This document shows, one piece after another, positions 25,758 through 29,183 of a stretch of 64,000 bases of DNA. Made by a program: the position numbers and the translations under genes. Positions within the stretch are counted from its first letter, which is position 1; each line of letters begins with the position of its first letter. The notes beneath the pieces are model-generated. The model worked only from the letters and a program-made list of their open reading frames with translations. It made no database searches and was not told the origin of the DNA. Where the stretch lies: NCBI GenBank assembly GCA_045602325.1, contig JAZSBH010000039.1, forward strand, positions 18,918 through 82,917. The letters run 5' to 3'. Origin of the DNA: Eubacteriales bacterium (GTDB taxonomy: Bacteria; Bacillota; Clostridia; Oscillospirales; CAG-272).

Positions 25758-27056
25758 TTACTTCACATAATCAAACTCAAACTCATAGATCGAAACCGTG
25801 TCTCCGTCCTTACAGCCCTTTTCTTCCAGCATCTCAAACACCCCGCTATTCTGCAGGACGCGCTGGAAGTAGTTGAGGGACTCGTAATCGTCGAAGTTGA
25901 TGCGCCCCATGAGGTTGTAGATCCAGTCGCCCTCCACGAAGAAGGTACGGTTCTCCTGGCGGATGACGGTGTCCTTGACACCCGCTCCGGCAATGTCGGA
26001 CAGAAGTGCCTCACCCTCGGCCACCTCGCTCTCGTAGACCGTGATGGGGGGGAGCAGCTTCAGCCGCTCGGAGACGCGGAAGATCATGTCCTGAATGCCC
26101 TCACCCGTGGCGGCGGAGACGTAGATCATCTCCCACTCGTTCTCGTCCACGAAGTCCTCGAAGGCCTGTACGTCCACGACCTCCTCATCCAGCGCGTCGT
26201 ACTTGTTGGCGATGATGATCTGGGGGCGGGTCGCCAGCTCGGGGCTGTACTTTTCCAGCTCGGAGTTGATGTTCTTCACATCCTCGATGGGATCTCTGCC
26301 TTCAAAGCAGGAGATGTCCACCACGTGGAGCAGCAGTCGGCAGCGGTCGATGTGGCGCAGGAAATCGTGCCCCAGACCCGCGCCCTCGGCGGCGCCGTCG
26401 ATGAGTCCGGGAATGTCGGCGGCCACGAAGCCGTCGCCCCCCGCCACCTGGACTACGCCCAGATTGGGAGACAGGGTGGTGAAGTGGTAGTCAGCGATCT
26501 TGGGGCGTGCCGCGCTGATGCGAGCCAGCAGGGAGGACTTACCCACGCTGGGATAGCCGATCAGACCCACGTCTGCGATCATTTTCAGCTCCATGAGGAC
26601 TTCGCGCTCTTCGCCGCGGGTGCCGTTCTTGGCGAACTGGGGAGCCTGACGGGTGGCGGTGGCGAAGTGGCGGTTGCCCCAGCCGCCTCGGCCGCCACGG
26701 CAGCAGATGTAGTCCGCGCCGCCGTTCTCGGACATATCGTGGATGACCTTGCCCGTGGCGGCATCCTTTATGACAGTCCCTTCGGGAACAGGAAGGATCA
26801 GATCCTCGGCGTTGGCGCCGTGGAACTTCTCGGGCATACCGTTGCCGCCGTTCTGAGCGGTAAAGTGGTGCTTGTAGCGGTAGGCCAGCAGGGTATTGGT
26901 GCCCTTGTCCACGCGGAAGACGATGTTACCGCCGTTACCGCCGTCGCCGCCGCTGGGGCCGCCGTGGGAGACGTACTTCTCGCGATGGAAGGCGATGGCA
27001 CCGTTGCCGCCGTTGCCGGCCTTGAGGTAGACTTTTACGTGGTCGAAGAATTGCAT
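25758..27056 (-). CDS. obg: GTPase Obg/CgtA
   Basis: 432 aa. Gly-rich Obg fold (GGNGGNG, GGPSGGDGGNGG). G1 GYPSVGKSS. C-terminal OCT-like domain. AAGGAG SD. Confidence 0.95.
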   Translation of the reverse strand: MQFFDHVKVYLKAGNGGNGAIAFHREKYVSHGGPSGGDGGNGGNIVFRVDKGTNTLLAYRYKHHFTAQNGGNGMPEKFHGANAEDLILPVPEGTVIKDAATGKVIHDMSENGGADYICCRGGRGGWGNRHFATATRQAPQFAKNGTRGEEREVLMELKMIADVGLIGYPSVGKSSLLARISAARPKIADYHFTTLSPNLGVVQVAGGDGFVAADIPGLIDGAAEGAGLGHDFLRHIDRCRLLLHVVDISCFEGRDPIEDVKNINSELEKYSPELATRPQIIIANKYDALDEEVVDVQAFEDFVDENEWEMIYVSAATGEGIQDMIFRVSERLKLLPPITVYESEVAEGEALLSDIAGAGVKDTVIRQENRTFFVEGDWIYNLMGRINFDDYESLNYFQRVLQNSGVFEMLEEKGCKDGDTVSIYEFEFDYVK

Positions 27057-27172
27057 ATGGTTGGTCTCCTTTCGTGGGAGGATGTTATGGAGGAATAATG
27101 GTTAAGCAGGGAAAATGACTTGCAAACCGAATGAACTGTCTATGCGCGGTATGATCCAAAGGTAAAAAAATA

Positions 27173-27243
27173 CCATCTCCGCGCTTGCCTTCCCCTTGGG
27201 GAAGGTGGCACGCCCATAGGGCGTGACGGATGAGGGTCACCCT
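27173..27243. repeat. left copy of a ~70-bp three-hairpin module (inverted relative to 27685-27755)
   Basis: CCTTCCCC-tt-GGGGAAGG, CACGCCC-ata-GGGCGTG, AGGGT-c-ACCCT. About 90 percent identical by eye to the reverse complement of 27685-27755. Confidence 0.85.
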
Positions 27244-27270
27244 TGGGGTGCTACTCTGTTTGGAGAAGTA

Positions 27271-27639
27271 TTATTCCAAATCCGCTGCGGTCAACCCCAA
27301 ACGTCTCAAAATATCCTCGCATACGGCTTGAAAGTTTCGGTTAATGTCTTGATTTGAATATCGCAAGACGGTGATCCCCAATGCCCAAAGTTCTCTATCT
27401 CTTTCATCATCAGCTGCACGGTTCTCGGGAAATTTGTGTTGTCGTCCGTCGATTTCTATAGCCAGACTGTGGCTGTGAATATAGAAATCAATGATGTAGT
27501 TTCCAATGTTCTTTTGACGGTTTACGGTGAGGGGCAGGCGTTGCAGGAAAAGATACCAAAGCTTTCTTTCAGCGTTGGTCATGTTGTTTCGCAGATCCTT
27601 GGCGAAGGAAACAAGTTTTTTGTTATGGTAGAGTGGCAT
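27271..27639 (-). CDS. DUF559-like (Vsr/restriction-endonuclease-fold) small protein
   Basis: 122 aa from the ATG at 27639 (MPLYHNKKLVSFAKDLR...). NAERKLW, IDFY and IEIDG-type pattern recalled from DUF559. The track start at 27741 would translate through the repeat module. Confidence 0.7.
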   Translation of the reverse strand: MPLYHNKKLVSFAKDLRNNMTNAERKLWYLFLQRLPLTVNRQKNIGNYIIDFYIHSHSLAIEIDGRQHKFPENRAADDERDRELWALGITVLRYSNQDINRNFQAVCEDILRRLGLTAADLE

Positions 27640-27684
27640 GATGTTATATTGTTGGGTGGATGACGGAAAAGAGTGAAATCGGGA

Positions 27685-27755
27685 AGGGTGACCCTCATCC
27701 GTCACGGCTATGCCGTGCCACCTTCCCCCAGGGGAAGGCAAGCGCGGGGATGGAA
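27685..27755. repeat. right copy of the ~70-bp three-hairpin module
   Basis: AGGGT-g-ACCCT, CACGGC-tat-GCCGTG, CCTTCCCC-ca-GGGGAAGG. Lies 45 nt upstream of the DUF559-like start. Confidence 0.85.
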
Positions 27756-27791
27756 TTTATGTGGAGAAGCTATACACCGCGTGGGATGAGA

Positions 27792-29183
27792 TCACTCCCC
27801 CAATCCATCATCATCCTCGTCTTCCTTCTTATCCTTCTTCCCCCTGATATTGATCTCGGGATCGTCACCCCTCTGCTTAATGATCATCTTGATGGGCGTT
27901 CCCTTGAATCCATAGGTCTCCCGCAGACAGTTCTCAATATACCGTTGGTAAGAGAAGTGGAACAGCTCGGCCATATTGCAGAACAGCACGAAGGTGGGGG
28001 GCGCGGTCTGGGTTTGGGTCATATAGTAGATCTTGAGCCGGCGGCCCTTGTCTGTGGGAGGCTGGACACGCATCATGGCCTCGCCCAGCACGTCGTTGAG
28101 CGCGCCCGTGGTGACACGGAGGTGAGACTGCTCGTAGACCGAGAGGATGAGGTCGTAGAGTCCGTCGATGCGCTGGCCGGTCTTGGCCGAAACAAAGGTG
28201 ATGGGGGCGTAGGGCATATAGGCCAGAGAATCACGAATGCGGTCGGTGAATTCCTTGACGGTGCTGTTGTCCTTTTCAATGGAATCCCACTTGTTGACCA
28301 CGATGATGGTGGCCTTACCCGCTTCGTGGGCGATACCAGCGATCTTCTCGTCCTGCTCGGTGATGCCCACCGACGCGTCGATCATGAGGAGGCAGACGTC
28401 GGCTCTCTCCACCGCCATATGGGCGCGGAGTACCGAGTATTTCTCGATCTGATCCCCAATCTTGGACTGACGGCGGATGCCCGCGGTGTCGATGAAGGTA
28501 AAGGTTCCGCGCTCATTGACCAGACGGGTGTCCACCGCATCACGGGTGGTGCCGGCGATGTCGGATACGATCATGCGGTTCTCGCCCAGGAAGCGGTTGA
28601 TGATGGAGGATTTGCCCGCATTGGGCTTACCGATGACGGCGATCTTGATGCCGCTCTCTTCCTCTTCGCCCTCTTCCCAGTCGGCAAGAGCCTCACAGCA
28701 GGCGTCCAGCAGGTCGCCGGTACCCGAGCCGTGGATGGAGGACACCGCTACAGGGTCGCAGTCAAAGCCCAGTTCGTAGAACTCGTAGTATTCAAAGGGA
28801 AGATCGCCTACGCGGTCGCACTTGTTGATGCAGGGAATGATGGGCTTGCCGCTCTTCTGGAGCATGACTCCGATGTCGCGGTCGGCGGCGGTCAGACCCG
28901 TGCGGACGTCGCACATGAAAACAATGACGTCAGCGTCGTCGATGGCCACCTGGGCCTGCACCTTCATCTGGGACAGGATGATGTCGTCGGTCTTGGGCTC
29001 GATACCGCCGGTGTCGATGAGGATCAGCTGACGGCCATTCCATTCGGTCTCGCCGTAGATGCGGTCGCGGGTGACACCGGGGGTATCCTCCACGATGGAG
29101 CGACGCTCGCCGATAAGCTTATTGAACAGGGTGGATTTGCCCACGTTGGGGCGGCCGACAATAGCGATAATGGGTTTGGACAT
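27792..29183 (-). CDS. der: ribosome-biogenesis GTPase Der (EngA)
   Basis: 463 aa. Tandem G domains (GRPNVGKST, GKPNAGKSS). KH-like C-terminus plus a charged tail. AAGGAG SD. Confidence 0.95.
   Translation of the reverse strand: MSKPIIAIVGRPNVGKSTLFNKLIGERRSIVEDTPGVTRDRIYGETEWNGRQLILIDTGGIEPKTDDIILSQMKVQAQVAIDDADVIVFMCDVRTGLTAADRDIGVMLQKSGKPIIPCINKCDRVGDLPFEYYEFYELGFDCDPVAVSSIHGSGTGDLLDACCEALADWEEGEEEESGIKIAVIGKPNAGKSSIINRFLGENRMIVSDIAGTTRDAVDTRLVNERGTFTFIDTAGIRRQSKIGDQIEKYSVLRAHMAVERADVCLLMIDASVGITEQDEKIAGIAHEAGKATIIVVNKWDSIEKDNSTVKEFTDRIRDSLAYMPYAPITFVSAKTGQRIDGLYDLILSVYEQSHLRVTTGALNDVLGEAMMRVQPPTDKGRRLKIYYMTQTQTAPPTFVLFCNMAELFHFSYQRYIENCLRETYGFKGTPIKMIIKQRGDDPEINIRGKKDKKEDEDDDGLGE

Follow-up and report, generated by a model that had tools for sequence, protein, structure and literature searches.

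A DUF559 endonuclease gene bracketed by a dispersed structured repeat: a probable REPtron-like unit between der and obg in gut Clostridia

Repeats of the BoxC/PIT type have been known in Escherichia coli since the 1990s, without a function, a mobilising enzyme or a gene partner (Holder 2015, PMC4666352). Their TMECO consensus reads CCCTCNCCC N3-6 GGGNGAGGG N3 GGGNGAGGG, and strain MG1655 carries 23 BoxC/TMECO copies, often as inverted A+B pairs (Holder 2015, PMC4666352). The BoxC/PIT triplex forms in vitro, its stable formation in vivo is not supported for TMECO, and RNA does not form triplexes of the purine motif (Holder 2015, PMC4666352). In vitro, PIT/BoxC elements are a block to DNA polymerase; they also mark hot spots of rearrangement, their loci being unstable. 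In E. coli, PIT elements showed activity neither as promoters nor as terminators, and the BoxC study reported neither an associated gene class nor a mobile element (Holder 2015, PMC4666352). Here we describe, in a 64-kb stretch of a Eubacteriales genome (contig JAZSBH010000039.1, positions 18,918 to 82,917; hereafter the window), a small gene of the DUF559 nuclease family that lies between der and obg and is bracketed by two inverted copies of a repeat of similar design.

DUF559 proteins are Vsr-like nicking enzymes. The family is very widespread and its structure has been solved (3HRL), and to our knowledge it is uncharacterised, with no known substrate; nor do we know of an activity for any member of the subfamily to which the window protein belongs. 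VsrA of Caulobacter, a DUF559 protein, causes DNA damage in vivo, and Vsr and VsrA are tied to cytosine methylation and T:G mismatch repair (PMC12907096). Among other dispersed palindromes, the CGTC-tagged repetitive extragenic palindromic sequences (REPs) have been described without a dedicated transposase (Di Nocera et al. 2013, PMC3733652).

We consider it probable that the feature is a conserved REPtron-like unit, in which a YcjD-type DUF559 endonuclease gene is bracketed, tails inward, by a dispersed structured repeat. The relation of gene and repeat would be like that of the REP-associated tyrosine transposases (RAYTs) with REP/REPIN sequences ('REPtron'), with another enzyme class and another repeat. 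Both the gene and the repeat are kept by selection. The parts of the unit, in window coordinates, are as follows.

27271-27639, minus strand: DUF559 gene, an open reading frame (ORF) of 122 aa plus stop for a YcjD-type Vsr-like PD-(D/E)XK endonuclease (Pfam PF04480, E=1.6e-26)
27188-27236, plus strand: module copy downstream of the DUF559 gene, antisense to the gene (covariance model, 71.8 bits, E=7e-23)
27188-27195 and 27198-27205, plus strand: first hairpin (P1) of the downstream module, CCTTCCCC / GGGGAAGG
27206-27207, plus strand: TG of the downstream module
27209-27215 and 27219-27225, plus strand: second hairpin (P2) of the downstream module, CACGCCC / GGGCGTG (CACGCCC-ATA-GGGCGTG)
27228-27236, plus strand: purine tail of the downstream module, GGATGAGGG
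27692-27738, minus strand: module copy upstream of the DUF559 gene and co-oriented with it (covariance model, 73.5 bits, E=2e-23)
27692-27700, 27703-27717 and 27721-27738, given in plus coordinates: tail, P2 (CACGGC-TAT-GCCGTG) and P1 of the upstream module
27237-27244, plus strand: lineage-specific extension TCACCCTT, in both window copies, which with the end of the tail forms the 'third hairpin'
27640-27683, minus strand: 5' leader from upstream module to ATG, with a degenerate inverted copy of the tail at 27661-27674
27137-27187, no strand: outer flank of the obg-proximal unit, a degenerate outward-facing half-module sharing P1
27144-27149 and 27179-27184: obg-proximal outer stem, GCGCGG / CCGCGC, with a 29-nt loop
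27173-27205, minus strand: obg-proximal half-match (covariance model, 18.4 bits)
27739-27790, no strand: outer flank of the der-proximal unit, a degenerate outward-facing half-module sharing P1, also picked up in the repeat search as an inverted repeat
27742-27747 and 27777-27782: der-proximal outer stem, GCGCGG / CCGCGT, then GGGATGAG at 27783-27790
27721-27753, plus strand: der-proximal half-match (covariance model, 19.5 bits), with a relaxed pattern match at 27721-27790, plus strand
25758-27056, minus strand: obg (context; Pfam GTP1_OBG, 3e-58), upstream of which the unit is inserted
27792-29183, minus strand: der/engA (context; Pfam MMR_HSR1 twice and KH_dom-like)

A repeat search of the window gave two pairs of inverted-repeat arms, 27168-27212/27714-27758 (45 nt, 93%) and 27222-27244/27684-27706 (23 nt, 100%), which together place the outer limits of the inverted copies at 27168-27244 and 27684-27758; the symmetry extends weakly outward, to about 27137 and 27790. 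Global alignment of 27173-27243 with the reverse complement of 27685-27755 gives 65 identical columns out of 73 (89%), close to the roughly 90% estimated by eye in a preliminary description of the locus, which had also recognised the DUF559-like ORF of 122 aa between der and obg. The palindrome CCTTCCCCNNGGGGAAGG occurs exactly twice in the 64 kb (0.06 expected; 0 of 100 shuffles reached two). Between the DUF559 ATG and the nearer end of the right copy there are 44-45 nt, for which the same description had given 45 nt, and both of the peptide strings it reported are present in the six-frame translation. The leader contains an inverted repeat, 27661-27674 / 27691-27704 (79%), and no obvious Shine-Dalgarno sequence in 27640-27683.

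Each copy had been described as three consecutive hairpins. Hairpins 1 (27188-27205 and 27721-27738) and 2 are present as claimed, P1 and P2 both appear in the predicted fold of the downstream copy, and the upstream copy folded likewise. The third, AGGGT-C-ACCCT, can be read in the window, but it is not conserved, since it changes to GGGTCTCCC or GGGTCCCCC without compensation in orthologous loci and is absent from other family members. P2 differs on both arms between the window copies with its pairing kept, so the compensatory change reported for hairpin 2 stands, and it extends to covariation across the whole family. Long-range pairing of the two flanking copies was considered as the selected feature and rejected: each copy retains a local fold of its own, and the two diverge in P2 and in some cases in subtype.

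Uniqueness of the module to this locus, which the preliminary description had named as a refuting outcome, is not what is seen. A family scan with the pattern GGAAGGTG-N(8-38)-ACGGATGAGGG, applied to one genome per species, matched at least 119 genome stretches, and the same scan of viral contigs (IMG/VR) at least 120. The genome matches listed come mostly from metagenome-assembled genomes (MAGs) of Oscillospiraceae or other Clostridia, with others in Christensenellales, Lachnospiraceae, Dehalococcoidales, Barnesiella and Alphaproteobacteria (Mesorhizobium, Bosea, Roseiarcus) and some chance matches in high-GC taxa. The 5' arm of hairpin 1, which lay outside the search pattern, was still found in nearly all real matches. 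From the matches listed, 126 distinct copies were collected, and these share a core of about 49 nt made up of P1 (CCTTCCCC/GGGGAAGG), TG, a sequence-variable P2, AC and the purine tail GGATGAGGG. Written for the family, the core is (A)GCCTTCCCC-loop-GGGGAAGG-TG-P2-ACGGATGAGGG, with conserved P2 flanks GGTG(G/T) and ACGG.

Covariation was judged against shuffle and slide controls. In a MAFFT alignment of 109 copies, P2 is paired in 82% of cells versus 59% in shuffles (slid controls 20-46%), there are 196 double-change cells versus 60 in shuffles, and at four positions every Watson-Crick pair type occurs. Over the 64 kb, a covariance model trained on 26 copies of matched geometry recovers two full copies plus two outward half-matches sharing P1, and nothing further. 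In the model-fitted alignment of 150 further matches 94.5% of cells pair, versus 76%, and two-sided changes occur in 15 of 16 pairs, including all seven P1 pairs (e.g. CG 109, GC 21, UA 2); this alignment leans towards structure, a bias of which the MAFFT result is free. P1 and P2 thus covary strongly, over more than 130 distinct copies, and both alignments bear out the earlier proposal of selection on structure. At the base of P2 a T.G wobble is conserved (81/113 cells), together with a G.A or U-A pair. As the sequence of P2 is free and its pairing is kept, what is conserved is a folded single strand and not a duplex binding site.

Most orphan copies, those without a gene, occur as dimers at close spacing, and both orientations are found. 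Of 65 adjacent +/- pairs, 46 are gene-less tail-to-tail dimers whose spacers measure 15-110 nt, and orphans show no orientation bias relative to neighbouring genes (58:42), a statistic that used crude gene calls and in which 84 'inside ORF' cases are probably artefacts. In a Christensenella MAG (L062:1153-1351; loci are given by our own L numbers) four modules follow one another head to tail with a 49-nt period and no spacers. Nine head-to-head dimers in L023-L141 (-/+ pairs, spacing about -20 nt) share one P1 palindrome in the layout tail'-P2'-P1-P2-tail, which could fold as a four-way junction; the two flanks in the window are degenerate versions of this dimer. The viral and prophage contigs (L246-L365) hold 227 copies in at least 120 loci, between ordinary phage genes, and ordinary phage genes were also the only cargo between widely spaced module pairs.

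No Rfam family overlapped a module at E<=10 in the window. At E<=1, eight module-rich loci gave two matches, both far-sub-threshold chance hits to miRNA families, of which mir-506 in L062 overlaps the tandem array. Compared by eye with known ribozyme and attC cores, from general knowledge, GGAAGGUG...ACGGAUGAGG is unlike hammerhead, twister, pistol and the integron attC R'/R''.

The conserved 3' tail is unpaired and mirrors the purine arm of P1 at 7/8 positions in the window. With the window blocks CCTTCCCC, GGGGAAGG and GGATGAGG(G), purine-motif triads (G·G, A·A, T·A) are allowed at 7/8 positions in one register and at no more than 5/8 in the others, and the CCTTCTCC/GGAGAAGG variant reaches 8/8. 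The score is 10/10 for the corresponding elements of Azospirillum, Sinorhizobium and E. coli and 7/7 for that of Sphingobium, despite different block sequences. Three-way covariation of the tail with P1 variants was not seen within the gut subfamily, where the tail is nearly invariant, so that the mirror relation is informative only between families. The window module thus carries the three blocks of the BoxC/PIT design on one strand (pyrimidine, complementary purine, mirror purine), and its family is multi-copy, dispersed and intergenic, with frequent close dimers and type T/type G pairs. It does not match the published TMECO consensus, from which its block sequences and loop 2 differ; with its different blocks and longer loop 2 it is a variant and not a strict TMECO member. 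Judged on this design, the window module is a BoxC/PIT-type element in which a covarying hairpin replaces the 3-nt loop 2.

The association of gene and repeat was approached from both sides. Starting from the gene, 80 metagenomic loci encoding DUF559 relatives (50-82% identity) were sampled. A module lies within 400 nt of the gene in 70 of them by pattern; the covariance model finds one in 76, and L169, found by pattern only, brings the total to 77/80. Within 300 nt of the gene the module density in these loci is 2.73/kb, and more than 500 nt away it is 0.05/kb. The tails face the gene in 80 cases (upstream + 33, downstream - 47) and face away from it in 39 (13 and 26), and the usual spacing of a module from the start and stop codons is 5-45 nt. 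Starting from the repeat, the gene was found in 1 of 119 genome loci among the matches listed (L136, an alphaproteobacterium with the same architecture) and in 0 of 120 viral loci (227 modules) among the matches listed, which makes 1 of 239 module-bearing loci among the matches listed. So few gene-bearing loci among so many repeats is the asymmetry typical of a nuclease with many targets.

A similar pairing is found well beyond the gut Clostridia. When an alphaproteobacterial protein was used in tblastn against annotated replicons and eight diverse DUF559 genes were inspected, seven (Deinococcus, Methylobacterium, Azospirillum, Picosynechococcus, Neisseria, Sinorhizobium and Sphingobium) were flanked by inverted GC-rich hairpin repeats of similar design, and the eighth, from Synechocystis, had a similar motif upstream; the mirror-tail register among those seven was scored for Azospirillum, Sinorhizobium and Sphingobium. 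In Neisseria gonorrhoeae (L372:540-575 and 1150-1280) inverted CTCTCCC-TGT-GGGAGAGAG-CTA-GAGAGAGGG elements with the BoxC/PIT three-block mirror design flank the DUF559 gene, which, going by organism and match, probably encodes 3HRL. In E. coli MG1655 (L366:7190-7810) a partial BoxC/TMECO copy overlaps the stop codon of ycjD, a full inverted copy lies about 170 nt downstream, and a perfect 17-bp inverted repeat (TCACCTCATTCTGACAA / TTGTCAGAATGAGGTGA, containing GAATGAGGTGA) covers the annotated GTG start. The repeat at ycjD matches the TMECO consensus and has a median of 16 occurrences per E. coli genome. Taken together, the pairing is seen in Firmicutes, Alpha-, Beta- and Gammaproteobacteria, Deinococcota and Cyanobacteria. 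Neither the BoxC/PIT design nor this multi-phylum association was part of the preliminary description.

These counts bear on the idea that the association is coincidental, generic GC-rich repeats having accumulated in roomy intergenic regions or around horizontally acquired genes. The repeats are indeed abundant, they also lie between unrelated genes and in phage contigs, and the der-obg junction is variable in relatives (NUDIX and Fic insertions). Coincidence would not account, however, for an approximately 50-fold enrichment at the gene over other intergenic regions of the same loci, for the biased orientation of modules there, or for a pairing in at least five phyla with different repeat sequences and the same design. 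A 3.5-Mb replicon of Sinorhizobium sp. K101 has 20 copies, and 4 of them fall no further than about 500 nt from the one gene, against an expectation of about 0.007. This reading is strongly disfavoured, and we regard it as very improbable.

A possible second pairing of small nuclease and hairpin repeat was seen in one orthologous locus, without a counterpart in the window. In L003 (434-896), DUF512 and der are separated by a 93-aa GIY-YIG gene (483-764) that stands between inverted repeats of another family (GTCATCCTGAGCGAGGACTCTGTCCGAGTCGAAGGATCTC and its complement, 40 nt, 93%), with three tandem partial copies following, and fragments of this other family adjoin modules in L045, L052 and L106. 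Small GIY-YIG genes with GTCATCCTGAGCG repeats may be a parallel case.

The window protein falls within the DUF559/Vsr-like family (PF04480, 92.8 bits versus a cutoff of 20.6). Its best NCBIfam match is the YcjD family (PRK09767, E=3.8e-18), and it reaches 65.7 bits against the YcjD equivalog NF007294, whose cutoff is 218, so it belongs to the family and is not a YcjD equivalog. PDB 3HRL matches it with E=4e-11. Residues D51, E62 and D64, together with R41, Q42, D77, R80 and D81, are invariant across 24 sequences including one alphaproteobacterial sequence; the first three are putative catalytic residues, and with them invariant the enzyme looks intact. Within the carrier clade the ORF has a dN/dS (ratio of nonsynonymous to synonymous rates) of 0.07-0.16, with synonymous sites saturated (pS 0.56-0.89). 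The exact protein sequence has no database record, scans for defence-system and phage families gave weak generic nuclease matches only, the Pfam matches of the window ORF comprise DUF559 and MTES_1575 with no transposase domain among them, and no methyltransferase was seen adjoining the gene. Contigs with close DUF559 homologues are mostly just 0.5-3 kb long, consistent with assembly breaks at the flanking repeats, and several homologues have N- or C-terminal extensions (130-198 aa) that probably read into repeats.

The history of the site was reconstructed from 23 orthologous loci (L001-L022, L152), drawn from 43 contigs, whose DUF559 proteins are 74-97% identical to that of the window. All 23 have the order der-(NUDIX)-DUF559-obg and have kept both flanking repeats, contrary to the other refuting outcome named in the preliminary description, relatives with the gene at this site and no repeats. 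Module cores are almost unchanged across them, changes in P2 are compensated (CACGGC/GCCGTG, CACGCCC/GGGCGTG, GTCGC/GCGAC), and in L152 both flanks have switched together to the subtype GGAAGG-GGGACCGC...GCGGTGG-ATGAGG. In lineages with an 84% identical Obg (L238-L243), 15-35 nt separate der from obg, neither a DUF559 gene nor a module being present, and a lineage with 77% Obg identity has a HAD hydrolase gene between der and obg. Given these compact sister junctions, the unit of about 700 nt is a single insertion, by which both gene and repeats reached a site that had neither. Gene and repeats therefore behave as a cassette, one of the possibilities raised in the preliminary description; the junction comparison suggested there yielded empty sites in sister lineages, which are too diverged to align and so define no target duplication. 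One relative's MAG (L111) carries a gene-less head-to-head dimer with the lineage-specific flavour of the module. The neighbourhood is variable (L001, L003, L004, L015 and others), some relatives having a NUDIX gene that separates der from the DUF559 unit and others having additional ORFs (NUDIX, Fic or unannotated) after obg, which fits the reported instability of BoxC-type loci.

An insertion of this kind raises the possibility of homing, in which DUF559 would be a free-standing homing endonuclease gene, the empty repeat dimer its target, and the gene copied in by repair; the repeats would then be targets and not products. Vsr-like nucleases do include a homing endonuclease family (I-Bth0305I), gene-less tail-to-tail dimers are common with the gene occupying the position of the spacer, and this lineage has the gene where its sister lineages do not. 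The empty der-obg site of relatives, however, has no repeat to home into, and each DUF559 variant was found in one genomic context only. Apparently long vertical inheritance at the dN/dS given above, with no decayed copies, is also unlike the usual cycle of gain and decay, and we judge homing to be quite unlikely.

The repeats could instead be cis-acting expression or RNA elements of the DUF559 gene without any enzymatic connection. A ribosome-binding site (RBS) would then be provided or hidden by the upstream module, the flanks would stabilise, process or insulate the nuclease mRNA inside a der-obg operon, and orphans would be the same hairpin put to other, unrelated purposes. Support comes from the tail GGATGAGGTG, which is Shine-Dalgarno-like and lies 6-13 nt before the start in L166, L177, L179, L188, L189, L199 and L237, from the annotated GTG start of E. 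coli ycjD, which overlaps GAGGTGA inside the perfect 17-bp inverted repeat, and from the conserved T.G wobble at the base of P2, which favours one strand. In the window itself the tail is 45 nt from the ATG and so cannot be an RBS, and the copy downstream runs antisense to DUF559. In 26950-27900 neither a terminator-like site nor a U tract was found, promoter-like matches around the locus were only weak and lay inside the ORF, and orphans, often symmetric dimers, are not biased in orientation relative to neighbouring genes. For PIT elements neither promoter nor terminator activity was found in E. coli, and the purine-motif triplex does not form in RNA (Holder 2015, PMC4666352). The earlier suggestion of a paired insulator or terminator fails on these same points (no terminator-like site, no U tract, unbiased orphans), and a purely cis-acting role in general seems to us unlikely.

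It has also to be asked whether DUF559 is a host repair nuclease that resolves a replication-blocking hairpin or triplex at the repeats, with an addiction-like linkage in which the repeat would damage a cell that lacked the nuclease. In favour of this, DNA polymerase is blocked in vitro by PIT/BoxC elements, which also mark hot spots of rearrangement (Holder 2015, PMC4666352), the protein belongs to a Vsr-like nicking class in which Caulobacter VsrA damages DNA in vivo (PMC12907096), and the ORF is under strong purifying selection. Such a role leaves unexplained why modules bracket the gene within tens of nucleotides and with their tails inward, and we hold it to be decidedly unlikely.

Several observations weigh against a REPtron-like unit as well. 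The 64-kb window contains just the two module copies that flank the gene; flanking subtypes are often mixed, type G with type T, and a comparison of protein clade with module subtype gave no clean co-phylogeny of protein and repeat. The architecture is heterogeneous, the full 'upstream + / downstream -' form being present in about 14 of the 80 loci under strict criteria, and in many loci the tail stands, RBS-like, 6-13 nt before the start codon, so that the upstream adjacency is explicable without an enzymatic link. The association was measured per locus, and no target-site duplication was recognised at the junctions. Finally, that the DUF559 protein binds or cuts the repeat is something we infer by analogy.

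On this reading the unit entered the der-obg junction, compact until then, in a forebear of the present gut lineage (Eubacteriales/Oscillospiraceae-related) and has since probably been inherited vertically under purifying selection. If the REPtron-like reading holds, the nuclease would recognise and nick the folded single-stranded repeat, a form that could arise at replication or through cruciform extrusion. Recognition would probably take place at the conserved junction around P2, which presents T.G and G.A mismatches; that a Vsr-like enzyme should meet a wobble at the base of P2 is suggestive, but this is speculation on our part. Nicking might then copy, homogenise or maintain the many gene-less orphan copies.

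More broadly, and tentatively enough that we would not call it probable, YcjD-type DUF559 proteins may be the trans-acting partners of BoxC/PIT-type repeats throughout Bacteria, ycjD and BoxC included, with structure-specific nicking, copying, homogenisation and local instability as the outcome. This would amount to a second REPIN-RAYT-like symbiosis, enzymatically unrelated to the first, and would supply a candidate partner for both the BoxC/PIT repeats and DUF559. The potential interest is high because the old question of BoxC would become testable in E. coli. On the practical side, the repeats probably break metagenome assemblies and create spurious N-terminal extensions and tiny ORFs in annotation. 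The repeat class itself is known (BoxC/PIT); neither in Rfam nor in the literature searched did we find the variant with a hairpin in loop 2 or its spread among gut Clostridia. A link of DUF559 or ycjD to repeats was likewise not found in that literature, which omits most subscription journals, so earlier notice is possible.

Set beside known systems, the unit resembles insertion sequences (IS) and miniature inverted-repeat transposable elements (MITEs) in its terminal inverted repeats around a nuclease-type gene, its many gene-less derivatives and its insertion relative to an empty site. It differs in having no DDE, serine or tyrosine transposase and no target-site duplication that could be found, in flanks that differ in P2 and, in relatives, sometimes in subtype, and in a gene that seems to be single-copy and stably inherited. 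The REP/MITE-like repeat of the preliminary description is therefore right as to a structured, dispersed, REP-like element, and does not hold for the IS/MITE part, with no transposase domain and no duplication recognised. Among REPs, the CGTC-tagged class (PMC3733652) shares a CGTC preceding P2 on the other strand, followed by (G)CCA, as well as occurrence in Alphaproteobacteria and in dimers. Its conserved 8-9-bp stems start with A-T pairs and have 4-5-nt loops, whereas the P2 stem of the window is free in sequence, and P1 and the tail have no counterpart in the description of CGTC REPs, so the resemblance may be superficial.

With Vsr, YcjD, 3HRL and VsrA the window protein shares the PF04480 domain, the conserved acidic residues and the form of a small stand-alone protein. 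The link to methylation and T:G repair is particular to Vsr and VsrA; no methyltransferase was seen beside the window gene, and its product scores below the YcjD equivalog cutoff. On the side of the repeat, BoxC/PIT/TMECO elements and the window module have the three-block design in common. Both are GC-rich, intergenic and dispersed, in both, copies of two subtypes often pair up closely in inverted orientation (A+B in E. coli, type T + type G here), and for neither is a function known. The blocks are CCTTCCCC/GGGGAAGG/GGATGAGG here as opposed to CCCTCNCCC/GGGNGAGGG/GGGNGAGGG, loop 2 is a covarying hairpin of 15-25 nt between TG and AC instead of 3 nt, and the window variant is found mainly in gut Clostridia and some Alphaproteobacteria. 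Published work on BoxC has no gene link, whereas here the repeats bracket DUF559 and the E. coli BoxC abuts ycjD.

The closest parallel in organisation is REP/REPIN with RAYT. The window enzyme is a PD-(D/E)XK Vsr-like DUF559 protein and not an HUH/Y1 (IS200/IS605-type) transposase, its repeat has two hairpins and a mirror-repeat tail in place of the GTAG tag, and its activity on the repeat is proposed by analogy. In both systems a nuclease gene is flanked by inverted hairpin repeats, and orphan repeats, often inverted dimers, far outnumber the genes. As in REPtrons, the gene may be single-copy and vertically inherited, the der-obg location of DUF559 being kept across 74-97% protein identity with one context per variant, and in both systems the pairing is conserved while the stem sequence drifts.

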